64,000 nucleotides of DNA from Bacteroidia bacterium (GCA_039630245.1 JBCNVK010000004.1:5403-69402), one strand, 5' to 3'; positions 5,410 through 51,087 are shown, counted from the stretch's first letter. A program made the numbers and translations. The notes: generated from the letters alone by a model not told the origin.

Positions 5410-6021
5410 ATGAGTAAATTCAAGGCTAAGAAGCAGAATATTGCGATAGACATGACCCCCATGGTGGATTTAGCCTTCTTGCTTATTACTTTCTTCATGC
5501 TTACGGTCAAGTTTCGTGCGCCAGAGGCGGTAGAGGTGGATTTGCCTTCCTCCATAGCCGATACGCCTCTGCCAGCGCAGGATATCCTCATGATTTCGGT
5601 CTCGGGGGATGGTCGGATATTTTTTGGGGTAGATAGCAAGCATGTACGGCTTGGAATTCTAGAGAAGATTAAGGAGCGGTATGGGTATAGCTTCAGTGAG
5701 GAGGAAATGCACCTTTTCTCTATCCTACCGGAAATCGGTGTGCCTTTTGAGCAGCTTAAGGGCTATTTGGCTTTACGGGAAGACGAGCGAAAGGCTATAG
5801 ACAAGCGAGCCTCTATACCCGTAGATAGCACAAATAACCAGCTCAAGCAGTGGATTCTTTTTGCGCGCTATAGCAATCCCAAGCTGCGGATAGTTATCCG
5901 AGCAGATGAACGGGCGCCCTACCCCGTCATCGCCCGCGTGATAGAGACGCTCAAGGAACAGAAGATACACCGATTTAATTTGATTACTACCTTTGAAGCG
6001 CGACCACAAAAAGTCTCTTAG
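5410..6021 (+). CDS. exbD: Biopolymer transport protein ExbD/TolR
   Basis: The N-terminus is DMTPMVDLAFLLITFFM, the ExbD signature. Confidence 0.85.
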   Translation: MSKFKAKKQNIAIDMTPMVDLAFLLITFFMLTVKFRAPEAVEVDLPSSIADTPLPAQDILMISVSGDGRIFFGVDSKHVRLGILEKIKERYGYSFSEEEMHLFSILPEIGVPFEQLKGYLALREDERKAIDKRASIPVDSTNNQLKQWILFARYSNPKLRIVIRADERAPYPVIARVIETLKEQKIHRFNLITTFEARPQKVS

Positions 6022-6024
6022 GGT

Positions 6025-6591
6025 ATGGCAGCGGAGGTAGGAGGTGATAGCGGGGCACCCAAAAAGGGCAAGAAGAAAGGGAAAGCCCGCAAGCCGCGTA
6101 AGCGCCCACGCATTGATATGACGCCCATGGTGGACTTGGGCTTCTTGCTGCTTACCTTCTTCGTGCTTACCACCACTATGTCTACCCCTAATACGATGCC
6201 TGTGGTAGTACCGCCTAAGATTACCGAGAAAGATGAGGTAGAACCGCCAAAGATTGCCGAGGGCAAGGTTATCACTTTGCTCGTAGGTCGAGGAAAAGTA
6301 TACCACTATACGGGCGTAGAAAAACCGGAACTCCATCAGACGGATTTCTCCTCTCAAGGCGGCATACGGCGGGTGCTTCTACAACGGCGTCAAGAAGTAG
6401 CCGCGCGCTACGGCAACCCCGACGAAATGATTGTCATAATCAAGATGCTGGACGAGGCGCAGTACAAGGACTTTGTGGATATCTTGGATGAGATGAATAT
6501 CATTCAGCAGCGCAAATATGCCTTGGTGGATATTACCAAGGAAGAAGTAGGAATGGTAGAGGATTACAAAAAGCAGATGAAATCCTCTTAG
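6025..6591 (+). CDS. exbD: Biopolymer transport protein ExbD/TolR (second copy, basic N-terminal tail)
   Basis: IDMTPMVDLGFLLLTFFVL motif. It is tandem with the first exbD. Confidence 0.85.
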   Translation: MAAEVGGDSGAPKKGKKKGKARKPRKRPRIDMTPMVDLGFLLLTFFVLTTTMSTPNTMPVVVPPKITEKDEVEPPKIAEGKVITLLVGRGKVYHYTGVEKPELHQTDFSSQGGIRRVLLQRRQEVAARYGNPDEMIVIIKMLDEAQYKDFVDILDEMNIIQQRKYALVDITKEEVGMVEDYKKQMKSS

Positions 6592-35966: not shown

Positions 35967-37655
35967 ATGGAGCTTTTCCTTTCAGCCGCACAACGAGCTG
36001 AGCTATGGACTAAGCACCAGCCCCGCCTTCTTGCTGCGCGCAAAGCTTGGCAGCAGCGCACCTTTTGGGCCGCCTACCCCGAAGACCCCAAAAGCTACCC
36101 TGAAACAGCGGCCGCTCAGGGCGAAGCCGACTTTCAAGCTCAACTCCAAAAGCCCTTCCAAAGGCTTCTGCAGGAAAGTTCTACTTGGCTTACCTCCGAT
36201 GAAGTTTCTCCCTATACGCAAGTGCCCTTAGGCATAAGCTACCCCCAACCTTCACCTGATCGCCTTATCCAAAAGGCTGAAGCCGCTTTAGCCGTATGGC
36301 GCTGGGTACCTTGGAATGAACGGCTAGGGGTTCTTATGGAAAGCTTAGAGCGATTTGCTGAGCGGTTCTTTGAGGTAGCGCACGCCACGCTTCACACGAC
36401 AGGGCAAGCCTGGATGATGGCCTTTCAGGCCTCTGGTCCCCATGCGGCAGACCGGGCCATGGAAGCCCTAGCCGTGGCCTACCACGAGCTAGAGGCCATT
36501 CCCCCCCACGTCCGATGGGAAAAAGAAGCTGGCCGCAGCCGCATCGTCATAGAGAAATACTTTTTCCCTCAGCCGGAGGGGATCTCGCTTCACATTGGTG
36601 TCTCTACTTTTCCGGTTTGGAATACTTTGCCGGGCCTTTATGCCAGCTTAGCGGTGGGCAGCCCGGTTATCCTTAAGCCGCATCCGCGCGCCATATACCC
36701 TATCGCTATTGTAGTAGCGGTGCTTCAGCAAACCTTTGCGGACTATGGTCTGCCGCCCGAGATCGTCCAGCTTGCTGTGGATACCGTGGCCGCCCCTATC
36801 ACGAAGCTGCTCGCCGAACACCCCGCCATACGAATTATAGATTACACGGGCGGGCCAGAATTTGGGGCCTACTTGGAAAGCCTTCCAGGTAAAATCACCT
36901 TTCTAGAAAAAGCCGGCGTAAATGGCGTGCTTTTAGAAAGCGTAACCGACCTAGAGGCCGTGGCAAAGAATATAGCCTTTTCAGCCAGCCTTTACAGCGG
37001 GCAGATGTGCACCGCTCCGCAAAATGTGTATATCCCCCGCACAGGTGTGCGAACGCCGCAAGGCGTAGTTTCGTATGAGACCGTTACGGAAACGCTGCAA
37101 AAGGCCGTAGACGATTTAGCCGGTCATCCTAAGGCTGCGCCAGCCATTTTGGGGGCTTTGCAAAATGCTGGGGTGGCGGAGCGCATTGCACGCCTAAGCC
37201 AGCAGGTGCAGGTGCGCCGGCCAGCGCAGGCTTACGCTCATCCGCAGTTTGCTCAGGCACGCACCCTTACGCCTTTAGTGGCTGAGGTGGCGCAGCCAGA
37301 GGCTCCCGCCGCTCTCCACGAGCACTTCGGCCCTCGGCTCCTCTTTATCCCTGTCCGCAGCGCCGAGGAAGGCGTAGAAGCGCTCTGCCAGCTGGCGCGC
37401 ACGAAAGGCATGCTGGCCTGTGCCCTCTACACAACCGACCCTAGCTTTCAGACCCGAGCGGTTCGCCAGCTTGCCGAGGCTGGCGTAGCCCCGAGCCTCA
37501 ACTTCCATGGCCAGGCCTTCATCAACCAGAGCGTAGCATTTTCGGATTTTCACGGGACGGGAGCTAACCCAGCTGGTAACGCCTCCTTCACTGATACCAG
37601 CTTTATTGTCAAGCGCTTCCGCTGGCTGCAGGTGCGCCACTGCCTGGCCGGTTAG
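35967..37655 (+). CDS. Aldehyde dehydrogenase family protein (PaaN/PaaZ-like)
   Basis: ALDH catalytic Cys context (GQMCTAPQNVYIP). About 560 aa, as in PaaN-type enzymes. Confidence 0.55.
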   Translation: MELFLSAAQRAELWTKHQPRLLAARKAWQQRTFWAAYPEDPKSYPETAAAQGEADFQAQLQKPFQRLLQESSTWLTSDEVSPYTQVPLGISYPQPSPDRLIQKAEAALAVWRWVPWNERLGVLMESLERFAERFFEVAHATLHTTGQAWMMAFQASGPHAADRAMEALAVAYHELEAIPPHVRWEKEAGRSRIVIEKYFFPQPEGISLHIGVSTFPVWNTLPGLYASLAVGSPVILKPHPRAIYPIAIVVAVLQQTFADYGLPPEIVQLAVDTVAAPITKLLAEHPAIRIIDYTGGPEFGAYLESLPGKITFLEKAGVNGVLLESVTDLEAVAKNIAFSASLYSGQMCTAPQNVYIPRTGVRTPQGVVSYETVTETLQKAVDDLAGHPKAAPAILGALQNAGVAERIARLSQQVQVRRPAQAYAHPQFAQARTLTPLVAEVAQPEAPAALHEHFGPRLLFIPVRSAEEGVEALCQLARTKGMLACALYTTDPSFQTRAVRQLAEAGVAPSLNFHGQAFINQSVAFSDFHGTGANPAGNASFTDTSFIVKRFRWLQVRHCLAG

Positions 37656-38756
37656 CTATACGGCGAAGCGGAAATAAATAATATCCCCATCCTGCACGAT
37701 GTAATCTTTGCCTTCTAGGCGGCGTTTGCCAGCCGCTTGGGCCCCCATCTCACCTCCATAGGCAACGAAATCGGCGAAGGCTGTTACTTCCGCCCGAATG
37801 AAGCCCTGTTCCATATCCGAGTGGATACGGCCGGCAGCTTGAGGGGCCCGCGAACCCTGCGGTAAGGTCCAGGCACGGATTTCCTTAGGCCCTACGGTAA
37901 AGAACGTAATAAGCCCCAGCAATTTATAGGCTGCGCGTATAAGCTGATTTAGCGCAGGTTCCCTAAGGCCGTACAGGCGGAGGAATTCGGTTCTTTCTTC
38001 AGGGGGGAGCTGAGCTATCTGCGCCTCTAAGGCTGCGCACAGGGTGAGCGCAGGGGCGCCTTCGGCTGCGGCGAGGGCAGCCACCGCCTCGCTGAATGCA
38101 TTTCCCTCAGGCAAACTGGCCTCAGCTACATTCGCTACATACAGCACCGGCTTAAGGGTAAGGAATTGGAAAGGGGCTAAGAGGCTCCGCTCCTCTGCGT
38201 CTAAGGGAAGTGTGCGAAGGGGCCGGGCTGCTTGAAGATGGGCTTCGGCGCGCTGGAGAAGCTCCCAGCGCTTTACCTCCTCAGGGGAGGCCTGAAGGCG
38301 AGCCACCTTCTCGGCCTTTTGAAGGGCTCGCTGAAGCGTCTCTAGATCCTTGAGCTGAAGTTCTAAATCCACTATTTCTTTATCGCGCACAGGGTCTGGC
38401 GCACCCTCTACATGGATAATCTCAGGATCCTCAAAGCAACGGAGCACATGGATAATAGCATCTACCGTGCGGATGTGCGCCAGAAACTGATTGCCTAAAC
38501 CAGCTCCAGCGTGGGCGCCCCGAACTAGCCCTGCAATATCTACTATGGTGAGGCTTGCTGGGGTAACCTTCTGCGTGGGCACTAAAGCAGCCAGCTGGTC
38601 TAGCCGTGGATCTGGCACGGGTACAATGGCCCGATTAGGTTCTACTGTGCAGAAGGGGAAATTAGCTGCAGCGGCTAGCGCACTGCCAGCCAGCGCATTG
38701 AATAGGGTGGATTTTCCTACGTTTGGCAGGCCTACTATTCCACAGGCTAAGCCCAT
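37656..38756 (-). CDS. ychF: Ribosome-binding ATPase YchF (Obg-family GTPase)
   Basis: N-terminal [19 protein letters not shown] and C-terminal TGS domain. Start trimmed to the conserved Met (366 aa). Confidence 0.9.
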
Positions 38757-38776
38757 GCGGGCAAATTTGGCGGCTC

Positions 38777-39244
38777 TTATTGGACGATGAGGGGGACGCG
38801 CGGACCATTTGGGAGGAAGCCATGCTTGCGCGACCAAAACCCAAATTGCACCCAGTAACGACCCTTTCGGTTAGGGGCCACCACAAAAACCCCCTGGACA
38901 TACTGGCGCGGCAAATCTCGCTCCCAGTTGTTGAAGGGATAGTGCTGCATAACTTTCCGGCCTGCCTTGTCATAAATTTCATAGCTCACGCCTACTGCTA
39001 CCGAGTCGGTACTTAGGGAGGGAAGGCGTGCGGCGTAATCCTGAAAGATATAGACCTCGGCTACGGTATAGCCATTACTCCAGCCAGCTTGTCGCGAAAC
39101 CCGCAGGAGGGTGTCTTTGGGCCAGAGGCGTAGCTTGCCAGCCTCTAGGGCCCGATAGACTACGGAAGTTTGAGGATGCGTAAGGATTTGGTAAGGCCCT
39201 TCAGGTACGCGAAAGTAGCGCGGGTTGAGCTGCCTAAATTGCAC
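38777..39244 (-). CDS. Hypothetical protein (155 aa)
   Basis: Clean ORF in an operon between the membrane protein and ychF. Confidence 0.4.
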   Translation of the reverse strand: MQFRQLNPRYFRVPEGPYQILTHPQTSVVYRALEAGKLRLWPKDTLLRVSRQAGWSNGYTVAEVYIFQDYAARLPSLSTDSVAVGVSYEIYDKAGRKVMQHYPFNNWERDLPRQYVQGVFVVAPNRKGRYWVQFGFWSRKHGFLPNGPRVPLIVQ

Positions 39245-39246
39245 CT

Positions 39247-40644
39247 CTATAGAACGTAGGCATGCTGCGTGGCCTGCGCCAGCGAATCCAAGTAGGCCAT
39301 GTCCCCTACAAGGGTAAAAAGCGCCGTACTATCTCGGCCTAAGCTGGCGGCATAAAGGAGGCTACTCATAGGCCAGGCGTAGGCGGTCCACACGTAGTAG
39401 TTGAATTCGGGTGTTAGACTAGCAAAATGAAGTATGGCCTTGAATTCGCCCTCTTGGCGGCAGCTTTCTACCAGACGGCGGGTATGCCCTAGGCTTAGCT
39501 CGAGCGTGCGTGCGGAATAGCCAATCCGAAGCGCATTTTCCATTATCAGGCCTGCGGCTAAGAGGCTTCCTACTATTTTTTCGCTGGGCCTTTTCAGCCA
39601 GGCGAGGCCCGTGAAGGTGCCTACGCCGAGGGGGACGATTACGCCGAGCCCATAAAACTCCATGGCGGCGGGATGTTCGCCCTGCCAGAGGTAAATGGTG
39701 AGGTATAGCGCCGCTGCTAGGCTTGCGCTCACCACCGCTAAGAGGAGGCCCACCCCGCTCCAGCCATAACCTATGGGAAGGTAAAACCCTACTAGAGCTG
39801 TAACCATCAAGGTAAAGGGGTGATGGAAGGGGTAGAAATTCTTAAGATAGATACCCATGCGTGAGGCCCCAAAGCCTTGGCTGAAGAGTGTGCGAAGCTT
39901 AGTCAGGAGCTCACTCAGCGGCACGGCCTTCGTAGCTTCATAGCCGGTCAGAAATACAAAGTACTTCAGAGCGACTAAGGTGAGGCTCAAGCCTACTAGG
40001 CTAGCGCTGAGCCAGAGGTCTTTTCGGCGGCTGAGAAAAAAGACCAGCAAAGCTCCTTCTAAAAGTACAAAACCGCTTATAGGGTGCGCAAAGAAGAGCC
40101 CAGCGATGGCTAAGCTAAGCCCCAGCGCTAAGTAAAAGTAGCGCACACGTGAGGTCCTTTGAAGGGCCATAAGCCAAATCGCCGTACTACTCCCAGCTAA
40201 AGAGAGAGCCAGCGTAGCGGAATTTGTACTGTAAAACACATCGCGCGAAAGAAGATACGGTAGAGTAGGCAGAAAAGCCAGGCATTTTTCTTCCAAAGCA
40301 TCCGCCAGTCTATACACCACTATGAATCCCAAGAGCCCGACCAGAAGGTAGCCCAAGGAAAATAGAGCTAAGACGGCGTGGAAAGGCAGGCCCAGCTTTA
40401 CGCCTAGCCAGGTAGGGCCATGCGCTAGAAGATGCGCATACCGCTGGTGGTAAATAGCTATATCTCCTAACCCTACAAGGCGATAAAAAAGGTAAGCCCA
40501 GTCGTACCAAAAGGCCCTTTCCTGAGCAAAGACCAGAGAAAGAAGGGCAAAATAGATCCATACTCCCCAGCCTAGGTGCAGGAGAAATTTCTGAAAAATC
40601 CTACTCAGATCTTCTTGGGCTGGTGCAGAAAGGGGGAATCGCAT
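39247..40644 (-). CDS. Polytopic membrane protein (possible GT39/83-like glycosyltransferase or DUF2079). Start moved to ATG 40644.
   Basis: About 12 TM helices. A TATCTTTG motif lies 6 nt upstream of the ATG on the minus strand. Confidence 0.5.
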   Translation of the reverse strand: MRFPLSAPAQEDLSRIFQKFLLHLGWGVWIYFALLSLVFAQERAFWYDWAYLFYRLVGLGDIAIYHQRYAHLLAHGPTWLGVKLGLPFHAVLALFSLGYLLVGLLGFIVVYRLADALEEKCLAFLPTLPYLLSRDVFYSTNSATLALSLAGSSTAIWLMALQRTSRVRYFYLALGLSLAIAGLFFAHPISGFVLLEGALLVFFLSRRKDLWLSASLVGLSLTLVALKYFVFLTGYEATKAVPLSELLTKLRTLFSQGFGASRMGIYLKNFYPFHHPFTLMVTALVGFYLPIGYGWSGVGLLLAVVSASLAAALYLTIYLWQGEHPAAMEFYGLGVIVPLGVGTFTGLAWLKRPSEKIVGSLLAAGLIMENALRIGYSARTLELSLGHTRRLVESCRQEGEFKAILHFASLTPEFNYYVWTAYAWPMSSLLYAASLGRDSTALFTLVGDMAYLDSLAQATQHAYVL

Positions 40645-40701
40645 CGCCGCCAAAGATAGCGGGAAGCTATAAGGGATAGGCGTTTCACCGTATTTTTGGC
40701 C

Positions 40702-43700
40702 ATGCGCCGGCTTTTATATGGTCTGGCGGGAGGGCTGGGAATTCTCCTTCTACTGGCCCTGGTTATACCCTTTTTCCTGCGCGATAAGGTGGATGCGCTC
40801 CTGAAAGCCCAGATAAATAAAAGTCTCAACGCCGTAGTAGATTACAATCGGCTGAGCCTTTCTTTCTTTCGGCACTTTCCAGCCCTTACTCTACGGCTAG
40901 AGGGGCTTAGAGTCGTCAATAAAGCTCCTTTTACCGGAGATACGCTGCTGGCCTGTGAGGCCCTTGACGTGGGAGTGAATGTGTGGAAGGCTCTGAAAGG
41001 GGAGGTAGAAGTTACGCGGTTTTACCTTATTCGGCCGCGCATACTTGCTCAGGTACGCCGCGATGGTCAGGCCAGCTGGGCGATTACCTTGCCCGATACG
41101 ACGGCTGCGCCAAAGGCCGCTGAGCCAGCTGATACAGGCGCTTTTCGCCTAGCGCTTCATCGCTATGTCATTCAGGACGGCTGGGTGGCTTACCATGACT
41201 CCGCCGCAGGCCTCTTTGCCCGACTGGAAGGCCTCACCCACACGGGCCAAGGCGACTTCAGCCAAAAGGAATTACAGCTGGAAACCGACACGCGCATTGC
41301 GCGCACTTTCTTCACTATGGGCGAGACAAGCTATCTCACAGGCCAAACGCTGGCGGCAGGCATAGATTTAGACATAGACTTTCCGAATGCCCGCTACACC
41401 CTTCGACGAGGCCTAGTGCAGCTAAATGACCTCAGGCTGGAGCTTAGCGGTAAGATCAGCCGGCCTGATACCCTCACTACCCTATTGGACTTGCGCTTTG
41501 CGGCGCCGAAAGCCTCCCTAAAGGAGCTTCTCTCACTCATACCTGCCGTTTTTCGGAAGGGTTATGAGAGCCTTTCCACGGAAGGCGCTTTGACGCTGGA
41601 GGGGTATGTACAAGGGGAGCTACGGGATTCCCTTTTGCCGGCTTTCGGGCTTTCCTTGCGTGTGGAAAAAGGCAAGGTAATCTACAAAGACCTACCTAAG
41701 CCGCTGGAGGATGTGGAAATACGCCTCAAGGTGGAAAATCCCGCCTCTACCTTGGAAAGCCTACAGGTAGCCTTAGACACTTTTCACCTACGCGCAGGGA
41801 GTACACGGCTTAGCCTACGCTACCGTAGCCGAGGCTTACGCACCCTCAATCTAGAAGCTATCGCCACGGGCCAAGGTAATTTAGCCGACTTTGCCAGCGC
41901 TCTGCCTTTGGGCTACGAATTGCGCGGAAACTTTGACTTAGGCCTGAATATCCAAGGCACCTATGCCAAAAATCGCCTCCCGGCTATTGCGGGCCGCTTC
42001 AGCCTGCAAGAGGGGTATGTCAAAGCTGCAGCTTTTCCTACGGCCGCCGAAAATATCGCCATAGAGTTTGCGGCGGAAAGTCCTGATGCCTCACCGGCCC
42101 GCACCACAGCCACCCTACGGCGCCTCTATGCCGTAGTCGCAGGCGAACCCATAGAAGCCAACCTCAGCGTACAGAATTTAGAGGCCCTCAATTACCAAGC
42201 CGAAATAAAAGCCCGGGCGGACTTGGAGAAGCTGGCGCACCTTTTACCCTTGGACAGCACCCAGCTGGCGGGTAAAGTGGCGCTGCAGCTCAGTACGCGT
42301 GGCAGCCGTGAGGCCTTAGAAAAGCACGATTACACCCGCCTGCCTACTCAGGGGTCTCTGGCGATTCAAAATTTAGCCTACCGCAGTCCGGCTCTGCCCC
42401 AAGGCCTAAATATCCAGCAGGCCAATTTTAGCTTCACGCCGCGGTATGCAGAACTGCAAGGCTACAAAGGGACCATAGGAAACTCGGATATTGCGCTGGA
42501 TGGCCGCCTAGAAAACTACCTAGGCTACCTCCTAAAAGATGAGAAGATCATAGGCCAGCTCAGCCTGAGAAGTAATCATCTGGACCTCAACCAGTGGGTT
42601 TCCAAAGAGCCTGCGCCCCAGCCCCAGCAGCCAGCCGACACCAGCGCGCCCTTAGAAGTAGTAGTGCTTCCCGCCAATATTGACTTCACCTTTGAGGCCC
42701 AGATAGGCGAAATGCTGTATGAAAAAATGCGGTTTCGGAACGCGCGCGGGCGCATTATTCTGCGTGACCAGGCACTGAAATTAGAAGGTTTTGAAATGGA
42801 AGGCTTTGGGGGTAAGTTTGCGCTGGAGGGCAAATATATCGCCCCGGATAAGCAAAATGCCCGCTGGGACATGGGATTTGAACTGCGTGGCGTACAGGTA
42901 GAGGAGGTAGTGCCCCATTTTCCTACTATCCAGAAGCTAAGCCCGATTGTAAAGCGTACCCGAGGTCAAGTTAGCCTTTCGCTTAAGGCAGCCAGTGCTT
43001 TGAAGCCTGACCTTACGCCCGATTTAGCGACGCTCTCGGGAAGCGGTTTAGTGGAGGTTTTACAAGCCACTGTAGAGGGTTCTACAGCCCTCTCGGCCTT
43101 TTCGGCCGCGGCTAAGTTGCCGGCTCTCACGCCCATGCAGCTGAGTAACACCCGCATTCGCTTCCAGCTGCGTAATGGCGAGCTTTTGGTAGAGCCTTTT
43201 ACCGTAGCCGCTGGCCAATACAAGCTGGAAGTAGGCGGCGTAACCCGCTTAGACCAAACGATAGACTATGTGATGGGGCTGGAAGTGCCGGCGAGCTGGG
43301 CGCAAGGTGCGCTTCAAGCCCTAGGCCTGCCCTTAGCCGAGGGAACTACCGTGCGGCTTTTGGCGGATGTAGGCGGTAGCGTAACTCAGCCGAAAGTAAA
43401 AGGCATTCGGCCCGCCCAAGGGCGCGGCGGGGGCGTTTCCGAAGCCGCTACGGCACGCTTAGAAGCCGAAAAGCAGCGTTTGGAAGCCGAGCTGCGTGCG
43501 CGAGAGGATAGCCTACGCCGAGCCTTAGAGCAAAAGCAGCGCGAGGAGGCCGAGCGGCTGCGTCGTGAGGCGGAAGAGCGTGCCCGTCAGGAGCAAGAGC
43601 GCCTCCGCCGCGAAGCCGAAGAGCGCGCCCGCCAAGAGCAAGAACGCCTCCAACGCGAGGCCGAAGAACGCGCCCGCCAGCTGGAGGAGGAAAAACGCAA

Positions 43701-43743
43701 AAAGGAAGAAGAGCTGCGCCGGCACCTTCCCTTCGGTCGCTGA
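40702..43743 (+). CDS. AsmA-family outer-membrane assembly/lipid-transport-like protein with a C-terminal EAEERARQEQERLRR coiled-coil repeat
   Basis: N-terminal TM anchor, a long beta-rich AsmA/DUF748-like body, and a C-terminal charged repeat. Start ATG 40702 is preceded by a TATTTTTG motif. Confidence 0.6.
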   Translation: MRRLLYGLAGGLGILLLLALVIPFFLRDKVDALLKAQINKSLNAVVDYNRLSLSFFRHFPALTLRLEGLRVVNKAPFTGDTLLACEALDVGVNVWKALKGEVEVTRFYLIRPRILAQVRRDGQASWAITLPDTTAAPKAAEPADTGAFRLALHRYVIQDGWVAYHDSAAGLFARLEGLTHTGQGDFSQKELQLETDTRIARTFFTMGETSYLTGQTLAAGIDLDIDFPNARYTLRRGLVQLNDLRLELSGKISRPDTLTTLLDLRFAAPKASLKELLSLIPAVFRKGYESLSTEGALTLEGYVQGELRDSLLPAFGLSLRVEKGKVIYKDLPKPLEDVEIRLKVENPASTLESLQVALDTFHLRAGSTRLSLRYRSRGLRTLNLEAIATGQGNLADFASALPLGYELRGNFDLGLNIQGTYAKNRLPAIAGRFSLQEGYVKAAAFPTAAENIAIEFAAESPDASPARTTATLRRLYAVVAGEPIEANLSVQNLEALNYQAEIKARADLEKLAHLLPLDSTQLAGKVALQLSTRGSREALEKHDYTRLPTQGSLAIQNLAYRSPALPQGLNIQQANFSFTPRYAELQGYKGTIGNSDIALDGRLENYLGYLLKDEKIIGQLSLRSNHLDLNQWVSKEPAPQPQQPADTSAPLEVVVLPANIDFTFEAQIGEMLYEKMRFRNARGRIILRDQALKLEGFEMEGFGGKFALEGKYIAPDKQNARWDMGFELRGVQVEEVVPHFPTIQKLSPIVKRTRGQVSLSLKAASALKPDLTPDLATLSGSGLVEVLQATVEGSTALSAFSAAAKLPALTPMQLSNTRIRFQLRNGELLVEPFTVAAGQYKLEVGGVTRLDQTIDYVMGLEVPASWAQGALQALGLPLAEGTTVRLLADVGGSVTQPKVKGIRPAQGRGGGVSEAATARLEAEKQRLEAELRAREDSLRRALEQKQREEAERLRREAEERARQEQERLRREAEERARQEQERLQREAEERARQLEEEKRKKEEELRRHLPFGR
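43564..43680 (+). repeat. About 2.6 imperfect tandem copies of a 45-bp unit inside the AsmA-family gene (encodes EAEERARQEQERLRR)
   Basis: The units at 43564-43608, 43609-43653 and 43654-43680 differ mostly at synonymous positions. Confidence 0.7.
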
Positions 43744-44033
43744 TGGCTATCTGGCGATGGGTGGAGCTTCCCATCCGAACTGAAAGCGTGGAGTTTGTAC
43801 AGGGCCTTCTGGCCCAGCATGCACCCAAGGTACGGGCCTTTCCAGGCTGCCAAGCCCTTCACCTCTACGCCGGCGAGGGCCCTACCTTTTACTCCTTCAG
43901 CCAGTGGGCTACCTCCACCGATTTAGAAACTTACCGCCAGAGCTCCCTCTTTCGGACTTTTTGGGAGCAGCTCCGACCGCATTTTCGGGCGCAGCCGCGT
44001 GCCTTTAGCCTCACCCTTCTTGCCAGCTACTGA
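43743..44033 (+). CDS. ABM (antibiotic biosynthesis monooxygenase / Dabb, IsdG-like fold) family protein, 96 aa
   Basis: ABM pattern (VRAFPGCQALHLYAGEGPTFYSFSQWATSTDLETYRQS). TGATG-coupled on both sides. Confidence 0.6.
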   Translation: MAIWRWVELPIRTESVEFVQGLLAQHAPKVRAFPGCQALHLYAGEGPTFYSFSQWATSTDLETYRQSSLFRTFWEQLRPHFRAQPRAFSLTLLASY

Positions 44034-45124
44034 TGCCCTGGCGCCTCTACCGTCGGCCCATCTTAGCGAACTACTACCTAACCTACCGCTGTAATGCTGC
44101 CTGCTCCTTCTGCAATATCTGGCAGAAGCCATCCCCTTACGCCGATGTACCTACGGTACTTGAAAACCTGCGCGCCCTGCGCCGGCTGGGCGTGCGGATT
44201 ATTGACTTTACCGGTGGGGAGCCGCTCCTTCACAGAGCTCTTCCCCTTTTCTTAGAGGCGGCTCAGCGCTTAGGCTTCCTTACCACCGTAACGACCAACG
44301 GCCTCCTCTACCCCAAGCGAGCCCGAGAGCTCCAAGGGAAGGTAGACCTTCTCCATTTCTCTCTGGATGCCGCCACACCCGCAGGCCATAATACCCTGCG
44401 CGGGGGCGTACCTTGCTTTGAATTCATCCAAGAAAGCCTGAAAATAGCCCAAAAGCTTGGTGAAAAGCCTGACATCCTATTCACCGTTTCTAACGAAAAT
44501 TGGCAGGACATAGAGGAAGTCTATGCCAGATTTGTGCGGCCTTACGGGCTTATCCTGATACTCAATCCTATTTTTGCTTACAGCGAGGTTGGCACAAATA
44601 GCCTTTCGCCTGAGGTGGTGGCATTTCTCCGCCAGTGGGCGCGCAAGAAAGCCGACGTCTACCTGAATGAAGCCTTTCTACGGCTGCGTGCGGCTGGGGG
44701 GAATAGCCCCTACCGGCCCGTATGCCGAGCCAGCTCCGTGGCCGTAGTAATTTCGCCCGACAATCAGCTACTGCTGCCCTGCTACCATGCGCAGGAACGC
44801 GGCTATGCCTTCCCTATAAACGGCCAGCTCGAGAAGCTCTACTACAGTCCGCCTGTTCAGCACCTGCGGGCTTTAGAGGGGCGATTTAGCTTTTGCCAGG
44901 GATGTGCTATCAATTGCTATATGGAGCCCAGCTTTGCGGTAGAGCTAAACTCTTACTTTTGGGCTTCGCTACCCAGTACGCTGCGGTACATGCGCCGCAA
45001 ATGGGGTGTCGCAGGCGTACTACGGCTTTGGTGGCGCGTGACTTTCCCGCCTGGCTGGCGCTCAGCGGATAAGCTGGAAACGCTCACCCAAATAAACCCG
45101 CCGCACCTCGGGGTCCTGCGCTAA
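44033..45124 (+). CDS. Radical SAM protein with a C-terminal Cys cluster (SPASM/twitch-like)
   Basis: CxxxCxxC ([10 protein letters not shown]), [10 protein letters not shown] glycine-rich SAM motif, and C-terminal FCQGCAINC. Confidence 0.75.
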
Positions 45125-45790
45125 GGCTTCGGCGGCACCCTCGCGCAGGATCCGACCCCCATGGAGAAGGTAGGCCCGCTGCGTAATGCTCAAGGTCTCA
45201 TGCACATTATGGTCGGTGATAAGAATGCCTATGCCCCGTTGAGCCAGACGCACAATAATCCCCTGTATCTCTTCCACAGCAATCGGGTCTACGCCCGCGA
45301 AGGGCTCATCCAAAAGCAGGAAACGCGGTTCTACGGCCAGAGCGCGCGCAATTTCGGTTCGGCGGCGCTCTCCCCCCGAAAGCTGCTGGCCTAGCGAATG
45401 CCGCACCCGCTGCAGGCTAAACTCCTCCAAAAGCGCCTCTATACGCTCCCGAATCTGCTTTCGGCTTAGCCCCGGACGCAGCTCAAGCACCGTGCGCAGA
45501 TTATCCTCTACGCTCATGCGCCGAAATACCGAAGCCTCCTGCGGCAGGTAGCCGATGCCCATTTGGGCCCGCTTGTACATAGGTAGGTGGGTAATGCGCT
45601 CCGCCCCTAAATAAATCTCGCCCGCATCCGGCCGAATAAAGCCCACAATCATGTAGAAGGTCGTAGTTTTTCCTGCGCCATTGGGGCCCAGCAGCCCCAC
45701 GATTTCCCCGGGCGCCAGCTGAAGGGAGACCTGATCCACTACCTTGCGCTTGCCATAAGTTTTCTGGAGGTTCTCAGCGCGCAGAAGCAT
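45062..45790 (-). CDS. lptB: LPS export ABC transporter ATP-binding protein
   Basis: Walker [10 protein letters not shown], signature LSGGERRR, Walker [12 protein letters not shown]. Start set to the ATG preceded by TATTTTTG. Confidence 0.85.
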
Positions 45791-45824
45791 GTGCAAAAAT
45801 AGGCGCAGAGGACCTGGGGTAGGC

Positions 45825-45832
45825 TACCTTTG
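45825..45832 (+). promoter_or_regulatory. TACCTTTG -7 element, 4 nt upstream of the carB GTG. The divergent lptB element TATTTTTG (minus strand, plus-strand 45794-45801) is 3 nt upstream of its ATG.
   Basis: A 46-bp divergent intergenic region holds both motifs. Confidence 0.55.
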
Positions 45833-45836
45833 TAGC

Positions 45837-48653
45837 GTGGCACACCTCCTCATCTTAGGCAGCGGGCCTATTGTAATCGGGCAGGCGGCGGAGTTTGACT
45901 ATTCGGGCTCGCAGGCGGCTCGGGCCCTGCGCGCTGAGGGCTATACGGTTCATCTCCTCAATTCCAACCCTGCCACGATTATGACGGATCCGATTACGGC
46001 TGACTATGTGCATCTACTTCCGCTCACGCCAGAGAGCGTGGAGGCTATTCTTCAACGCTACCCCATAGAGGCGGTGCTCCCTACGATGGGCGGGCAGACA
46101 GCCCTCAATCTCGCCATGGAATGCGCCCGATTAGGTCTGTGGGAGCGGTACGGGGTGCGGGTAATAGGGGCTTCCCTGCTCGCCATAGAGGTAGCCGAAG
46201 ACAGGGAGAAGTTCCGGCAGTGGGGTGAGAGTTTAGGCCTTCCCATGCTGCCATCAGGCATAGCTCGCTCCTATTTAGAGGCTAAGGATCTGGCTCAGCG
46301 CATAGGGTATCCCGTAGTACTGCGACCTTCCTTCACCTTAGGGGGCGCTGGGGCCCAAATCGTCCATAACAAAAGCGAGCTGGAGCGCGCCATCGGCCGC
46401 GCGCTGGCTCTCAGCCCCATCCATGAAGTGCTTGTAGAAAAAAGCGTAGCCGGCTGGAAGGAATTTGAGCTTGAGGTCATGCGCGATAAAGATGGCAACT
46501 TCATCGTGGTCTGTACGATAGAAAACCTTGATCCCATGGGCATCCATACGGGCGACTCCATAACGGTGGCGCCAGCGCTTACTCTCCCCGACTACCTCAT
46601 GCAGCGCATGCGGAACTACGCTAAAAAGCTCTTGGGCTCTTTTCCAGATTTTGCCGGCGGCTGTAATGTGCAATTCGCCCTCAGCCCCCACTCGGATGAG
46701 CTATGCGTGATAGAAATCAATCCGCGCGTGTCCCGCTCTTCGGCCCTGGCCTCAAAGGCTACGGGCTACCCTATTGCGCGCATTGCGGCCCTCTTGGCCG
46801 TAGGTAAGCGGCTGGACGAAATCACCAATCCCATCACGGGCACTACTTCGGCCTTTTTTGAGCCCAGCCTGGATTATGTGGTGGTCAAGGTGCCCCGCTG
46901 GAATTTTGACAAGTTTCCGGGGGCTAATCGCCAGCTTGGAATGCAAATGCGCAGCGTCGGCGAAGCGATGGGGATTGGACGTTCCTTCATAGAGGCCTTG
47001 CAAAAGGCCATTCAGTCCTTAGAGCTGCGGCGGAATGGACTGGGCGCCGATGGCCGCGAGGTACAGGACTTGGGTCAGCTTCTGCATAGCTTAGAGCACC
47101 CTTCCTGGCACCGCATCTTCCATATCCACGATGCGATTTTGGCCGGCATCCCCATCCGCACTATTCATAAGCTTACGGGCATAGATGAATGGTTCCTTCA
47201 TGAAATTCAGGCGCTTGTGGATCTAGAGCGGGAGCTAAGCCAGCACACTCTGGAAACTCTTACACCGGAGCTTCTCTGGAGGGCTAAGCAAATGGGCCTC
47301 GGGGATCGGCAAATTGCCCACCTGGTCCAAGCCTTAGAAAGCCAGGTTTATGCCCTACGGCAGAAATGGGGGATACGGCGCGTCTACAAGCGCGTGGACA
47401 CCTGTGCGGCGGAGTTTGAGGCCCAAACGCCCTACTACTACTCCACCTTTGAGCCCCAAGGGGAGGATGAGGGGGTTACCTTCCCCGCCGCCGATGTAGG
47501 CAAGCCGCGCCTTCTTATCCTGGGCTCAGGCCCCAACCGAATCGGCCAAGGCATAGAATTTGACTACTGCTGCGTACACGGCGCCTTAGCCGCCCGGCAG
47601 CTAGGCTATGAAGCCCTCATGCTCAACTGCAACCCCGAAACCGTCTCCACCGACCCCGACATTTCGGACCGGCTCTACTTTGAGCCCGTCTTTTGGGAGC
47701 ACGTGTATGAGGTCATAGTGCGGGAAAAGCCAATAGGCGTAGTGGTTCAACTGGGCGGCCAGACACCTCTCAAACTGGCTGAAAAGCTTCACCGCTATGG
47801 CATCCCCCTTATTGGAACCTCGTACGAAAGCATTGATATCTCCGAGGACCGAGGAAAATTCTCAGAGCTCTTAAGGGATTTAGGCATTCCCTATCCGCCT
47901 TTTGGTGTAGTGCGCAGCCCAGACGAGGCTTTAGCGCTGGCCGAAAAGCTCGGCTACCCCGTCTTAGTACGCCCCAGCTACGTACTGGGTGGGCAGCATA
48001 TGCGCATCGTGGTTGATGAAGAGGAGCTAGTAGAACAAATCGTGGCCATCCTCCGCAATATGCCGGGCAACCGCATTCTGATAGATCGCTTTCTGTATGG
48101 GGCTATTGAGGCTGAGCTGGATGCTCTTTCCGATGGGGAAGCTATAGGCGTGATGGGGATTATGGAGCACATTGAGCCGGTGGGGGTGCATTCGGGCGAC
48201 TCTACGGCGGTGCTGCCGCCCTTCTCCCTTTCGCCCGAGAAGCAGGCCATAATGCGCCATTATGCCGAGCAGATCGCCCGCGCGCTGAGTGTCAAGGGCT
48301 TCCTAAATGTCCAGTATGCCATCCACGAGGATACGGTCTATGTGATAGAAGCGAATCTACGCGCCTCTCGCACCGTACCTTTTCTCTGCAAGGCCCAGGA
48401 TAAGCCTTTCGTTCAGTGGGCCATGGAAATCCTTCTGGGACGCAAGCGGATAGAGGATTTCAACTTTCCCGGCCCACGTCGCCGCTATGCCCTCAAGCTG
48501 CCTGTGTTTTCGTTTGAGCGCTTCCCGGAGGTAGAGAAAACGCTAGGCCCTGAGATGCGCTCTACGGGGGAGGAGATTCGCTTCATAGAAGGGCTGGACG
48601 ATCCGCTCTTTCAAAAGCTCTATGCGCAGCGCAGCCTTTACCTGAGCCGATAG
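45837..48653 (+). CDS. carB: Carbamoyl-phosphate synthase large subunit, short form lacking the C-terminal MGS-like domain. GTG start.
   Basis: Two ATP-grasp halves (ILGSGPIVIGQAAEFDYSGSQA ... ILGSGPNRIGQGIEFDYCCVH). The ORF-track N-terminal extension overlaps lptB and is spurious. Confidence 0.9.
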   Translation: MAHLLILGSGPIVIGQAAEFDYSGSQAARALRAEGYTVHLLNSNPATIMTDPITADYVHLLPLTPESVEAILQRYPIEAVLPTMGGQTALNLAMECARLGLWERYGVRVIGASLLAIEVAEDREKFRQWGESLGLPMLPSGIARSYLEAKDLAQRIGYPVVLRPSFTLGGAGAQIVHNKSELERAIGRALALSPIHEVLVEKSVAGWKEFELEVMRDKDGNFIVVCTIENLDPMGIHTGDSITVAPALTLPDYLMQRMRNYAKKLLGSFPDFAGGCNVQFALSPHSDELCVIEINPRVSRSSALASKATGYPIARIAALLAVGKRLDEITNPITGTTSAFFEPSLDYVVVKVPRWNFDKFPGANRQLGMQMRSVGEAMGIGRSFIEALQKAIQSLELRRNGLGADGREVQDLGQLLHSLEHPSWHRIFHIHDAILAGIPIRTIHKLTGIDEWFLHEIQALVDLERELSQHTLETLTPELLWRAKQMGLGDRQIAHLVQALESQVYALRQKWGIRRVYKRVDTCAAEFEAQTPYYYSTFEPQGEDEGVTFPAADVGKPRLLILGSGPNRIGQGIEFDYCCVHGALAARQLGYEALMLNCNPETVSTDPDISDRLYFEPVFWEHVYEVIVREKPIGVVVQLGGQTPLKLAEKLHRYGIPLIGTSYESIDISEDRGKFSELLRDLGIPYPPFGVVRSPDEALALAEKLGYPVLVRPSYVLGGQHMRIVVDEEELVEQIVAILRNMPGNRILIDRFLYGAIEAELDALSDGEAIGVMGIMEHIEPVGVHSGDSTAVLPPFSLSPEKQAIMRHYAEQIARALSVKGFLNVQYAIHEDTVYVIEANLRASRTVPFLCKAQDKPFVQWAMEILLGRKRIEDFNFPGPRRRYALKLPVFSFERFPEVEKTLGPEMRSTGEEIRFIEGLDDPLFQKLYAQRSLYLSR

Positions 48654-48658
48654 ATAGG

Positions 48659-49657
48659 CTATAGGTTCCAGGTATAGGCTATGAGTTGCCACCCGCGGGC
48701 GGCCCGCCGAAGCTCTTTAGGGGAAAGCGTGGGGATAGCGGTGGGCAGCTGGGGAATTTGCCAAAGGCAGGCCCACCACCCCGCGAGGAGAAAGTTTTCC
48801 GCCCGATGAATCCAAGTAAAGAAGGCCGGTAGGCGTTGGGGCGAGGGCCGGAAAGGGCGGCTGAGAAAATCCTGAGCGGCTTGGTAGGTAGCGTAGGGCA
48901 GTCCCGTCTCTATCCAGAGTTCTAATCCTTTCGCAAAAGGCACCCATTGCGCCTGGCAGGCTATTTGACGCTCGGCGCAGAGATAGTGTAGGAGGGCGTC
49001 GGCCTGCTGCCACAAGGCGGCCCAGGCGGCCAGAGAAGGAGAGCCGTTCAGCTGCCAGCGTATATACACCACCCCGGGCCCTTGATGGGCAGGCGAAGAA
49101 AGCGTAGGAGGCGGTTGCGGAGGCCAATACGCCTCTGAGACGCTGCCCGCCACTACCTCCCGCCCCAAATGCAAAAGCGGCATGGGGATTTTTCCCCGCA
49201 GCACCCCTCCTACCCCCCCAGCCTGCCAGTAGCGCGTAAAGTACTGCGTGAGCGCCAAAGGCGATAAATCCACTGGCAGAGTATCCTCGTAGGCTACTTG
49301 GAAGCTGCGGCTGAGTTCTGGCGGATTTTCTACTAGGGGTATAGCATTCTGCTGGAGGCGCTGCGGAAAGCGCTGAATAGCCCCGCGTAGAACATGGAAA
49401 AAAGTAAAAAGGCCTTCGGGTGTAGCTTCGCCTTCAACGCAAAACCACTGGCCGCGGCGCCGAAACCTATACCGCACCCCGTGGGTATAGGCCACCTGAC
49501 GCAGGAGCGAATCCGCAAAAAGGCCCTCCGCTACCGTGCGCGCTACGGCTTCCCCACGCCCACGTTCTAATGGGTGAAAAAGAAGCCACTGGATATAGCC
49601 CGTTTCCTGAGTATAGGCGCAGAGGGCTTGGGCCCACAAGCCTAACAGCTGAAACAT
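48659..49657 (-). CDS. Hypothetical Trp/Arg/Leu-rich protein (332 aa)
   Basis: Long clean ORF with host-like codon usage. It overlaps the upstream gene's end by 16 nt. Confidence 0.45.
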   Translation of the reverse strand: MFQLLGLWAQALCAYTQETGYIQWLLFHPLERGRGEAVARTVAEGLFADSLLRQVAYTHGVRYRFRRRGQWFCVEGEATPEGLFTFFHVLRGAIQRFPQRLQQNAIPLVENPPELSRSFQVAYEDTLPVDLSPLALTQYFTRYWQAGGVGGVLRGKIPMPLLHLGREVVAGSVSEAYWPPQPPPTLSSPAHQGPGVVYIRWQLNGSPSLAAWAALWQQADALLHYLCAERQIACQAQWVPFAKGLELWIETGLPYATYQAAQDFLSRPFRPSPQRLPAFFTWIHRAENFLLAGWWACLWQIPQLPTAIPTLSPKELRRAARGWQLIAYTWNL

Positions 49658-51087
49658 CGGAAGCGAATAGCTTTTGGGGGAAAACCCGCCGGCAAAGGGC
49701 GCAGATAGATCTCAAGGGCTTCAGGCGGAATCTGGTGGGTCTGGATGAGTTCCAGCCGAAGCTGGTGAAGATACTGGGTAAGGCGTTTGCGCTCGCGTGC
49801 CGTGCGATAGTACGCGCTAAGCTCGCAGGGTCGGCTGCAGCCTGGCTTCCAGAAAAGCCGAAAGGCAGCAGCCCATTCCCCTAAAGGCGGTAGGCCTGGC
49901 CCTGTCCAAAGAAAATCAGGCACCGCTACGGCCGGCGGGCGCGCCGGAGGCGGTGCAAAAACCACCGTATCTGAAGCTAAGCTTTCATTTCCCATCCATA
50001 TTCCCCGAGCCCTGAAAGGCCAGCCGCTCTGCCAGACCTGCGCCGGCAGACTATCACTGAGCCCCAGCGTATCCCCCATCAGCACTGGCGTGATCCAAAG
50101 ATCAGGATATTCCTCGGGATGGGCGCACACCTTGCGAAAAAAGAGCTCAAATGCCGCTTGCCATGCTCGCGCTTCTAAGGAGTCTTGCGCTGCAAGTGTG
50201 CTCAGGCGCCGAAGGAAAGCGTAGCTGCGTCCATCTACGCGCGCCTGAAGCAGCAGGTGCGTCCTGCCTTTTAGCTGCATGGACCATTGCAGGGGGGGAG
50301 CCTCGCGCTGCCACCGGCTGAGGAAAGCCTCCCGAAAAGCCAGCCGTTCCTTCCAACTCAGGGGCCCTTCCACAGCAAGCCCTACATAACCTGGATAGGC
50401 CCAGAGATTTTGTATCAGCGTATCCGGGAGGGGAGGCGTAACGAGGGAAGGAAGCGAGTCACTCACCGACTTAAGAGATATTTTCAACGGGAGGCGGCCG
50501 ATTTGGAATTTTTCCCGAAAGGATAAGCCGCCCCCAAAAATAATATGCAAGGATTCTGGTGCTAGGTAGCGCTGGATGTAGGCTAGGGCTTGCGGCCAGT
50601 CTAGGCTGGGCGGAAGGAGGGGACGACCTCGCAAAAGCCATTCCACTTCTTGCCTTAGGGAGAAGCCGATCCAGGCCTTGGCAGCCCGCTGGCGCAGGCG
50701 CTGCCAGGCCAGGCTATCCTGAAGGGGGAGAGCCCGCAAAGCGGCATAAAGCCAGCCTACCGCTTCCACCGCCATACTGCGCGGTACCGTCAGGCATACC
50801 GCCGCCCCCTCTGGCATACTCCAAAGGCTCAAATGCCCGCCTAGGCTTCCAAGCTGACGACGAAGCGCCGCTGAGGAAGGATTTATCGTGTCCTCCTGCG
50901 CTACTAAGAAGGCTACGATGCGCCCCAGCTCTTGATACGCTGGGGGGTGGCGCCACGCCAAAGCTACCCAGAGCAAAGGACGCTTACTGCCCAGCTCAGG
51001 AAACGTGACTAAGCGCGGCTTTCCACTCTGTAGGTCAATAACTTGACCGTAAATAAGCCCTAAGAGCCCCCAGAGGGAGGTACCCAT
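49642..51087 (-). CDS. Hypothetical Trp-rich protein (481 aa)
   Basis: Long clean ORF. It overlaps the ppx/gppA 3' end by 28 nt. Confidence 0.45.
   Translation of the reverse strand: MGTSLWGLLGLIYGQVIDLQSGKPRLVTFPELGSKRPLLWVALAWRHPPAYQELGRIVAFLVAQEDTINPSSAALRRQLGSLGGHLSLWSMPEGAAVCLTVPRSMAVEAVGWLYAALRALPLQDSLAWQRLRQRAAKAWIGFSLRQEVEWLLRGRPLLPPSLDWPQALAYIQRYLAPESLHIIFGGGLSFREKFQIGRLPLKISLKSVSDSLPSLVTPPLPDTLIQNLWAYPGYVGLAVEGPLSWKERLAFREAFLSRWQREAPPLQWSMQLKGRTHLLLQARVDGRSYAFLRRLSTLAAQDSLEARAWQAAFELFFRKVCAHPEEYPDLWITPVLMGDTLGLSDSLPAQVWQSGWPFRARGIWMGNESLASDTVVFAPPPARPPAVAVPDFLWTGPGLPPLGEWAAAFRLFWKPGCSRPCELSAYYRTARERKRLTQYLHQLRLELIQTHQIPPEALEIYLRPLPAGFPPKAIRFRCFSC

Follow-up and report, generated by a model that had tools for sequence, protein, structure and literature searches.

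The locus considered here raises the question of whether three genes that follow one another without a gap, and that run into a gene for lipopolysaccharide export, make up a dedicated system or have simply come to lie side by side. They are found in a stretch of 64,000 nucleotides from a Bacteroidia bacterium (the whole of which is called the window below), where an AsmA-like envelope protein gene is followed by the gene of a small ABM-fold protein and by that of a radical SAM enzyme, with lptB facing them on the other strand. The original prediction, made from the sequence, took them for an uncharacterised envelope-modification or maturation module wedged against lptB.

Layout of the locus

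The features on which the argument depends are the following:

40702..43743, + strand: AsmA-like envelope protein gene (1013 aa from the ATG; the TTG at 40696 is an alternative start)
43552..43680, + strand: 45-nt tandem repeat in the AsmA-like gene (2.9 copies, units ERLRREAEERARQEQ; Tandem Repeats Finder)
43741..43745, + strand: TGATG stop/start overlap of the AsmA-like and ABM genes (direct sequence read)
43743..44033, + strand: ABM-fold protein gene (96 aa ORF)
44031..44035, + strand: TGATG stop/start overlap of the ABM and radical SAM genes (direct sequence read)
44033..45124, + strand: radical SAM gene (363 aa ORF)
45062..45124, no strand: convergent overlap of the radical SAM tail and the lptB 3′ end (63 nt, ORF coordinates)
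45062..45796, − strand: lptB, LPS export ABC transporter ATPase (ORF, TIGR04406)

The chaining of the three same-strand genes by TGATG had been placed exactly, and the lengths given for the ABM and radical SAM proteins agreed with the ORFs, as did the 63-nt convergent overlap with the ORF coordinates. The AsmA-like gene had been assigned to the right family, whereas its length of 1014 aa and its start at 40691 had to be corrected, since there is no start codon at 40691. The convergent overlap sets a poorly conserved radical SAM tail against a conserved lptB 3′ end, and is shared by the corresponding locus of a second, near-identical genome (L081).

By crude longest-ORF calls, 10 of the 39 same-strand neighbour pairs in the window have an overlap of exactly 1 or 4 nt and 17 of the 39 overlap to some extent, as do four of the eight convergent pairs. 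The TGATG overlaps of the trio are therefore nothing unusual for the window, and a caution applies more generally, i.e., TGATG and ATGA overlaps routinely link unrelated genes in compact genomes. In such a compact, overlap-rich genome the three genes would have come together in one lineage.

There is no intergenic space between the trio genes, and the Bacteroidota-type motif TAnnTTTG is absent from positions 43300–44100, which makes a single transcript plausible; one site with this motif was found 3 nt upstream of the ATG of the AsmA-like gene. Co-transcription of the trio, as the original prediction had supposed, is thus plausible and even probable, the motif scan lending weak backing to a single transcript, and translation would re-initiate at the TGATG junctions. 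A scan for sigma-70 promoters and terminators over 40400–45900, using a consensus unsuited to Bacteroidota, gave counts at the level of shuffled sequence, and Rfam returned zero matches across 36000–50000.

The encoded proteins

The family assignments of all three proteins were borne out by Pfam scores above the cutoffs (AsmA, ABM and Radical_SAM). For the AsmA-like protein, Pfam AsmA (PF05170) gave 33.3 bits (cutoff 29.8) over residues 4–171, and DUF748 scored 30.4 bits, which is under the cutoff of that model. A 100% identical protein (P0122) carries the NCBI name “AsmA-like C-terminal region-containing protein”. The AF2 model (pLDDT 82.2) consists of a helix at residues 2–41, strands between 44 and 904 and a helix at 915–1008, and its top Foldseek matches were LPD-3, LptD, ApoB100 and TamB, with low TM scores throughout. 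The tandem repeat (score 167, 82% matches) encodes part of the C-terminal helical tail. With its PF05170 domain, N-terminal anchor helix and elongated beta-groove body, and with Foldseek matches that are consistent with the family at low TM, this is an ordinary Bacteroidota AsmA/TamB-like envelope protein. It would be held in the inner membrane by its N-terminal helix, from which the long beta-groove body would extend and, by analogy with characterised relatives, would ferry lipid across the periplasm; the charged helical tail is clade-specific.

The identity of lptB is clear, as TIGR04406 scored 367.8 bits against an equivalog cutoff of 240 over residues 5–242 of 244.

The 96-aa protein scored 30.4 bits with Pfam ABM (PF03992; cutoff 23.1). 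When a single sequence was used to search the PDB, a spurious match to a ribosomal protein was the sole result, whereas a profile of 23 relatives matched the ABM-fold entries PA3566, TT1380 and HmoB; the Pfam score and these profile matches place the protein in the ABM superfamily on the basis of sequence. A word-indexed search had given one near-identical protein only, and an exhaustive search of 1.84 billion representatives was used instead, which yielded 277 matches at E ≤ 1e-3, 13 of them within E ≤ 1e-10 and one within E ≤ 1e-30; the subfamily is narrow. The residues invariant among the 23 relatives are G35, S53, W55, L61, Y64, F70 and W74. The heme-degrading ABM oxygenases of the IsdG/IsdI/MhuD type have a conserved Asn-Trp-His catalytic triad; judged from the invariant residues of its own family, which include no Asn and no His, the window protein was rejected as an IsdG-type heme oxygenase, and its profile matched IsdI and MhuD in the PDB weakly (E 2e-3 to 3e-2). 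It would be a small, cytoplasmic, ferredoxin-like protein.

The radical SAM enzyme belongs clearly to its superfamily, with a cluster motif, a GGE-type motif and a PF04055 score of 80.8 bits against a cutoff of 29.5. The CxxxCxxC, GGEPLL and C-terminal CxxCxxxC motifs that had been pointed out are all present and are invariant across 14 orthologues, in the form of CNAACSFC (C20/C24/C27), GGEPLL (61–66) and CQGCAINC (C288/C291/C295). Besides CxxxCxxC there are five invariant C-terminal cysteines (C231-x18-C250 ... C288-x2-C291-x3-C295), an invariant IW(E/Q)(K/R)PSPY follows the cluster loop, and altogether about 100 positions are invariant in the 14 sequences. The conserved core ends at about residue 325, and the roughly 35 aa beyond it form a clade-specific tail. 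From these motifs, the enzyme would bind a [4Fe-4S]/SAM cluster and yield a 5′-deoxyadenosyl radical.

It had been described as SPASM/twitch-type, and the SPASM part of this description did not hold. Canonical SPASM domains carry a C-terminal seven-Cys motif that includes CX2CX5CX3C, whereas the five-cysteine pattern given above differs and Radical_SAM was the sole Pfam match at E ≤ 0.1, so that membership of the SPASM-domain enzymes (PF13186) was rejected. The twitch domain is a shortened C-terminal beta-hairpin plus helix, and many of its members bind one auxiliary [4Fe-4S] cluster. What was observed here is the five invariant C-terminal cysteines, the short strands at 237–261 followed by helices in the AF2 model (pLDDT 83.5), and the nearest folds found with Foldseek, of which BlsE (7vob) was the closest (TM 0.64/0.70), followed by SkfB, SpeY and MoaA. 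The five cysteines probably hold one putative auxiliary cluster.

Among curated NCBIfam models the best match was TIGR03961, the PTO1314 family (84.7 bits, E 7e-24), and membership was rejected because the cutoff lies at 306. Other candidates that were rejected include Viperin/pVip (NF038283, 59.8 bits against 180, residues 11–118 only), a defence system (PADLOC pVip matches of about 65 bits, confined to a partial core at residues 10–122) and MoaA (TIGR02666, 49.3 bits against 284, core only). The HMM placement called for earlier thus leaves the superfamily clear and the protein in an uncurated family, and the known housekeeping family that the original prediction had allowed for was not encountered, this family being uncharacterised. 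At least 584 genome stretches, from Cytophagales and allied groups, gave matches to it, and its orthologues share 55–60% identity across an order. The radical SAM protein is probably an enzyme that stands alone, and its family is strongly conserved. No paper found mentions PTO1314 or TIGR03961, and a literature search joining radical SAM, Cytophagales and uncharacterized found nothing. Archaeal calditol synthase is a sugar-cyclising radical SAM enzyme, to which the PTO1314-like family might be related, a candidate lead.

Neighbourhoods across genomes and their explanation

Recurrence in independent lineages, by which a conserved AsmA + ABM + radical SAM operon would be recognised, was not found. 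Radical SAM neighbourhoods were compared in 80 species-level genomes, mostly of one order (Cytophagales, heavily Hymenobacter), within 8 kb and with crude longest-ORF calls. Neither an AsmA gene nor lptB was found within 8 kb of the radical SAM orthologue at any of the 80 loci, and neither an ABM nor a radical SAM gene lay downstream of the AsmA orthologue in any of six genomes, where the next genes (the orthologues being 29–63% identical) were unrelated and encoded a TPR protein, a hypothetical protein, an ABC exporter, a P-type ATPase and an H+-PPase. In the sister genome GCA_026414975.1 the three genes lie on contigs 4 (AsmA), 9 (ABM) and 11 (radical SAM). These counts contradict a dedicated module set against lptB, and the search for conservation across Bacteroidota ended with the trio in the window and in L081, a near-identical MAG whose proteins are 91%, 89% and 95% identical, too close a relative to count as independent conservation. 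A search of the 80 loci for lptB found no close orthologue beside the radical SAM gene, the hits being limited to ABC ATPases at three loci (27–29% identity, more than 1 kb away); lptB is a neighbour, outside any conserved unit. The one paper found with both an AsmA-like protein and a radical SAM enzyme was an unrelated annotation survey.

Elsewhere the radical SAM gene keeps other company. In Hymenobacteraceae an nth-like gene lies upstream and a gamma-CA-like gene downstream; at L014, L016 and L065 fbaB-accD lies directly upstream, with spacings of 2, 0 and −14 nt; and at L001, L005 and L006 a Mpl-like ligase gene lies upstream, i.e., the radical SAM gene is packed as tightly behind accD or the Mpl-like ligase as it is behind the ABM gene.

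Of the adjacencies in the trio, only that of ABM and radical SAM predates this genome. An ABM gene upstream of the radical SAM gene was detected at three of the 80 loci (phmmer and a 52-sequence HMM), namely L003, L004 and L008; there, as in the window and L081, it lies directly upstream, 2 nt apart or overlapping. All of these belong to one thermophilic clade of Bacteroidia, in which they represent four separate branches (the window with L081, L003, L004 and L008), and in a neighbour-joining tree the pair-bearing genomes fall on both deep branches. The adjacency is probably ancestral to this clade and was broken several times.

The trio is most probably made up of three functionally independent genes that came to lie side by side in one lineage, without a dedicated system; outside this genome it was met only in the near-identical L081, so that it looks like the usual packing of compact genomes. 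Against this view, a pair that is tightly joined in four branches of the clade goes beyond a single chance event and may have a functional basis, and the radical SAM and ABM proteins, whose functions are uncharacterised, may share a pathway. A true two-enzyme unit of the thermophilic clade, with AsmA and lptB as bystanders, in which the ABM protein might, for example, act on what the radical SAM enzyme takes up or releases, by oxidising, isomerising or presenting it, would fit both this recurrence and the narrowness of the ABM subfamily, but is nevertheless unlikely. The adjacency is missing in five of the nine clade genomes (L001, L002, L005, L006 and L007); the genome of L006 has its ABM orthologue elsewhere, between an M28 peptidase gene and that for ArgRS; the closest ABM cluster (57% identity) is likewise unlinked, after LpxK and a PNP-family gene; and no ABM gene was found within 8 kb of the radical SAM gene at the other 72 loci, which are mostly from Cytophagales. 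It is a bolder and rather improbable step to take the pair of this hot-spring clade for a real two-protein unit that performs radical chemistry on an envelope-relevant sugar- or lipid-linked metabolite, with the ABM protein as a thermophile-only accessory; such a substrate could apply since the closest folds are sugar- or nucleotide-acting enzymes such as BlsE.

Two wider readings carry very little weight beside the independence of the three genes. That the AsmA-like protein carries a lipid or LPS species which the other two proteins modify, and that the genes lie beside lptB for this reason, would agree with the gap-free chaining and its retention in L081, and a weak hint of lipid metabolism might be seen in accD, present inside the roughly 17-kb radical SAM locus in 32 of 77 cases, and fabH (5 of 77). 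Where accD lies nearby, the unrelated fbaB accompanies it, and this looks like gene order that has been preserved; L081 is related too closely to add to the argument, and the comparison of neighbourhoods already contradicts this highly improbable module. Scarcely any chance can be given either to a cassette for the maturation of a peptide (RiPP) or cofactor, in which the radical SAM enzyme would be the SPASM/twitch maturase. The Foldseek neighbours do include the RiPP maturases SuiB, SkfB and CteB as well as anSME, and NCBIfam models for sactipeptide maturation, PqqE and NirJ gave weak matches, but these are confined to the core (residues ~10–170) and far under the cutoffs, the Pfam SPASM domain is absent at the threshold given above, no recurrent small precursor ORF or transporter was seen beside the orthologues, and the level of identity retained across an order with shifting context is typical of a stand-alone enzyme rather than of a RiPP cassette.

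The proposed new envelope-modification system is thus unsupported and should not be pursued as such. The remaining value lies in the radical SAM family, large, highly conserved and without a curated model, which is a reasonable target for enzymology in the cultivable Hymenobacter, Pontibacter and Marivirga.

Comparison with known systems

The AsmA-like protein resembles the AsmA/TamB-like proteins (AsmA, YhdP, TamB and YdbH in E. coli) in its N-terminal AsmA domain, in a predicted N-terminal helix, after which come about 860 residues in beta structure, and in Foldseek matches that point to bridge-like lipid-transfer or beta-groove proteins. It differs from them in a predicted single C-terminal helix of about 95 residues, E/R-rich and with a 15-aa tandem repeat, and the equivalog model for E. 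coli AsmA hardly matches it (12.8 bits, with the cutoff at 412). The ABM protein is close to PA3566 (1x7v), TT1380 (1iuj) and the YgiN/HmoB type in size, Pfam domain and profile matches (E 2e-7 to 1e-3), and is set apart from the IsdG-type heme oxygenases by having no invariant Asn or His with which to form their triad.

For the radical SAM enzyme, TIGR03961 was the sole curated model to align near full length (residues 7–301 with profile positions 20–308 of 332), and its score makes the enzyme a distant relative of the PTO1314 family rather than a member. BlsE, a cytosylglucuronate decarboxylase, came first in the fold comparison (314 columns) as well as in the profile search of PDB sequences (E 1.8e-15) and shares the CxxxCxxC and GGE motifs, whereas identity is 20% and the sequence match covers the core residues 17–162 only. 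Compared with BlsE and the SPASM/twitch group, the window family has its own invariant set of cysteines, C231, C250, C288, C291 and C295, together with IW(E/Q)(K/R)PSPY.

Gene order and packing around the three genes

Features of the AsmA-like, ABM and radical SAM genes and of the convergent lptB
40702-43743, plus strand: AsmA-like ORF, ATG start, 1013 aa, with an in-frame TTG at 40696
43552-43680: 45-nt tandem repeat, 2.9 copies, encoding ERLRREAEERARQEQ units in the AsmA-like helical tail
43743-44033, plus strand: ABM ORF, 96 aa
44033-45124, plus strand: radical SAM ORF, 363 aa
43741-43745 and 44031-44035, plus strand: TGATG stop/start junctions, read from the sequence
45062-45796, minus strand: lptB ORF, matching TIGR04406

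The original prediction was of a dedicated AsmA/ABM/radical SAM module for envelope modification or maturation beside lptB, with the three ORFs chained by TGATG at 43741-43745 and 44031-44035. This chaining was confirmed by the sequence, as was the 63-nt convergent overlap of the radical SAM gene with lptB by the ORF coordinates, and the family labels proved correct, each protein exceeding its Pfam cutoff (AsmA, 33.3 bits vs. 29.8; ABM, 30.4 vs. 23.1; Radical_SAM, 80.8 vs. 29.5). The AsmA-like ORF itself also stands, but no start codon lies at 40691, where it was proposed to begin, and the proposed length of 1014 aa is off by one, counting from the ATG. A TIGR04406 match of 367.8 bits (cutoff 240) spans residues 5-242 of the 244-residue lptB product. 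The 3′ end of lptB is thus real, and on the radical SAM side it is the protein's tail that the overlap covers. The ~35-aa tail lying over lptB occurs only in the thermophilic clade (the hot-spring Bacteroidia that comprise the window, the near-identical MAG locus L081 and loci L001-L008), is poorly conserved and is of low confidence in AF2.

Crude longest-ORF calls over the whole window gave overlaps of exactly 1 or 4 nt in 10 of 39 same-strand neighbour pairs and overlaps of any length in 17 of them, while half of the convergent pairs (4/8) overlap. Because overlaps are so frequent, the tight chaining of the trio is not unusual; genes in this genome are by default packed with stop/start overlaps, and such a junction says little about shared function. 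The sequence TATTTTTG at 40691-40698 matches the Bacteroidota -7 promoter consensus TAnnTTTG and stops 3 nt short of the AsmA ATG (40702), and this motif is absent between 43300 and 44100. Such a pattern, which is a consensus match only, would be compatible with co-transcription, and the leader would be very short or absent if the site is functional. The plus strand of the window contains 28 matches to TAnnTTTG, and the site before AsmA may thus be there by chance. No Rfam family was matched within 36000-50000.

Two other groups of minus-strand ORFs may be mentioned here. The ORFs at 39247-40653 (468 aa) and 38777-39244 (155 aa) are one 629-aa gene in L081 (5010-6899), the window carrying a frameshift near 39245 that could reflect misassembly, pseudogene formation or recoding; the protein of this split gene (38777-40653) resembles a multi-pass membrane protein, with no match in Pfam or NCBIfam. 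At 48659-51087, two ORFs (332 and 481 aa) that overlap each other lie downstream of a Ppx/GppA-HD gene, with a 28-nt overlap with it; neither has a Pfam or NCBIfam match, and both are kept in L081.

Neighbourhoods of the orthologous genes

The complete trio, with the identical lptB overlap, was found again only in L081 (GCA_033581135.1), where identity to the window proteins is 91%, 89% and 95%, so that this does not amount to independent conservation. Radical SAM relatives are abundant (>3000 in a word-indexed search), with orthologues at 65-76% identity in a group of MAGs of hot-spring Bacteroidia and at 54-61% identity in Thermonema, Hymenobacter, Pontibacter, Solirubrum, Marivirga, Reichenbachiella and Microscillaceae. 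When a single genome from each species was scanned, at least 584 stretches proved to encode a relative, and 80 loci with 8 kb flanks were retained from these and queried with the window proteins. Neither AsmA nor a close lptB orthologue was detected in any of the 80 using tblastn, the lptB query matching only ABC ATPases (27-29% identity, >1 kb away) in 3 of them, and ABM-like ORFs were confined to L003, L004 and L008 (phmmer, and an HMM of 52 ABM relatives, E<=1).

The neighbours of the radical SAM orthologue vary by lineage: Hymenobacteraceae carry an nth-like gene upstream in 28 loci and a gamma-carbonic-anhydrase-like gene downstream in 31, Marivirga and Reichenbachiella have nqrF downstream, and a Mpl-like ligase is directly upstream in L001, L005 and L006. 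Directly upstream in three other loci is accD (L014, 4553-7469; L016, 2479-5423; L065, 6189-8019), at spacings of 2, 0 and -14 nt, respectively, accompanied by fbaB in L014 and L016. Elsewhere, therefore, the orthologue is equally tightly packed behind unrelated housekeeping genes. Within the ~17-kb loci, accD is present in 32/77 and fabH in 5, with fabH directly upstream of the ABM gene in L004; this nearness may reflect gene order that was retained, or may faintly point to a link with fatty acids. The nth-like, that is endonuclease-III-like (HhH-GPD), gene is immediately upstream in its 28 loci, which are L009 and other Hymenobacteraceae loci, and in L002, a distant clade member, such a gene (5769-6434) lies two genes from the radical SAM gene on the opposite strand.

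Viewed from the AsmA side, a 100% identical protein (P0122) is encoded on a 206-kb Bacteroidia MAG contig, and orthologues are 51-63% identical in the same hot-spring clade and 27-30% in Cytophagales/Sphingobacteriales-type genomes. Six contexts were examined, and downstream of AsmA these contained a TPR protein, a 404-aa hypothetical protein (twice), an ABC exporter, a P-type ATPase and an H+-PPase, with ABM or radical SAM in none. The AsmA orthologue of KatS3mg026 is on contig 3 and its ABM-radical SAM pair on contig 1 (L003), and in GCA_026414975.1, the genome of L006, the three orthologues are split over contigs 4, 9 and 11. The proposed module is thus not conserved, with AsmA and close lptB in 0/80 radical SAM loci and ABM or radical SAM in 0/6 AsmA contexts; the trio came to lie side by side in a single lineage whose genome is compact.

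The ABM-radical SAM pair

The sole part of the proposed unit with evolutionary depth is the ABM-radical SAM pair. ABM is directly upstream of radical SAM in the window and L081, L003, L004 and L008, at junctions that are all very tight (2 nt apart or overlapping). In a neighbor-joining tree of radical SAM cores, the window and L081 group with L002, L003, L004, the set L001/L005/L006 and the pair L007/L008, and, judging from the positions of the pair-bearing genomes, the thermophilic clade probably inherited the pair from its common ancestor, with at least three later breaks. This adjacency could simply be retained gene order, and a functional link is a rather unlikely reading of it. In GCA_026414975.1, the ABM protein P0181 (47% identity) is encoded between an M28 peptidase and an arginyl-tRNA synthetase, with radical SAM unlinked, and the closest ABM cluster (P0180/P0330, 57% identity) follows LpxK and a PNP-family gene, beside a BioB-type radical SAM of another family. 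The order LpxK, PNP-family, ABM was seen in L090 (1253-4488) and L091 (840-4075), loci of these closest relatives outside the clade, where the BioB-type neighbour is divergent. Of the leads that remain, the best is the uncharacterised radical SAM family, together with the ABM neighbour that is limited to this clade.

Comparison with known protein families

The AF2 model of the AsmA-like protein (pLDDT 82.2) consists of an N-terminal helix (2-41), beta structure (44-904) and a tail forming one long charged helix (915-1008); the clade-homologue consensus of this tail also has EEERLRREAEER-type sequence. Its best Foldseek matches were the bridge-like lipid-transfer protein LPD-3, LptD, ApoB100 and TamB, at the low TM scores expected for long flexible proteins, and by analogy with characterised family members it may act in lipid transport.

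The ABM protein belongs to a narrow subfamily: of 1.84 billion representatives, 277 match it at E<=1e-3, 13 do so at E<=1e-10 and a single one at E<=1e-30. In a profile search it hit ABM-fold structures of unknown function and gave weaker hits to HmoB, IsdI and MhuD. The invariant residues are G35, S53, W55, L61, Y64, F70 and W74; since neither Asn nor His is invariant among the aligned relatives, an IsdG-type heme oxygenase is unlikely.

The radical SAM protein has invariant cysteines C20/C24/C27, C128, C231, C250, C288, C291 and C295, and no SPASM domain was detected in it by Pfam search. Viperin, MoaA, sactipeptide maturases, NirJ/Ahb and PqqE matched the core only, far below curated cutoffs, and the PADLOC matches to pVip were likewise restricted to the core. 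A RiPP role is unlikely because neither a small ORF nor a transporter recurs beside the orthologues. We take the protein to be a stand-alone enzyme, from a family that is uncurated and has a C-terminus rich in Cys. The best curated family, TIGR03961 (PTO1314), aligns over nearly the full length, yet at 84.7 bits against a cutoff of 306. A PDB profile search matched the core only, with BlsE on top, and the AF2 model (pLDDT 83.5) is also nearest to BlsE (TM 0.64/0.70), followed by SuiB, SkfB, anSME, viperin and MoaA.
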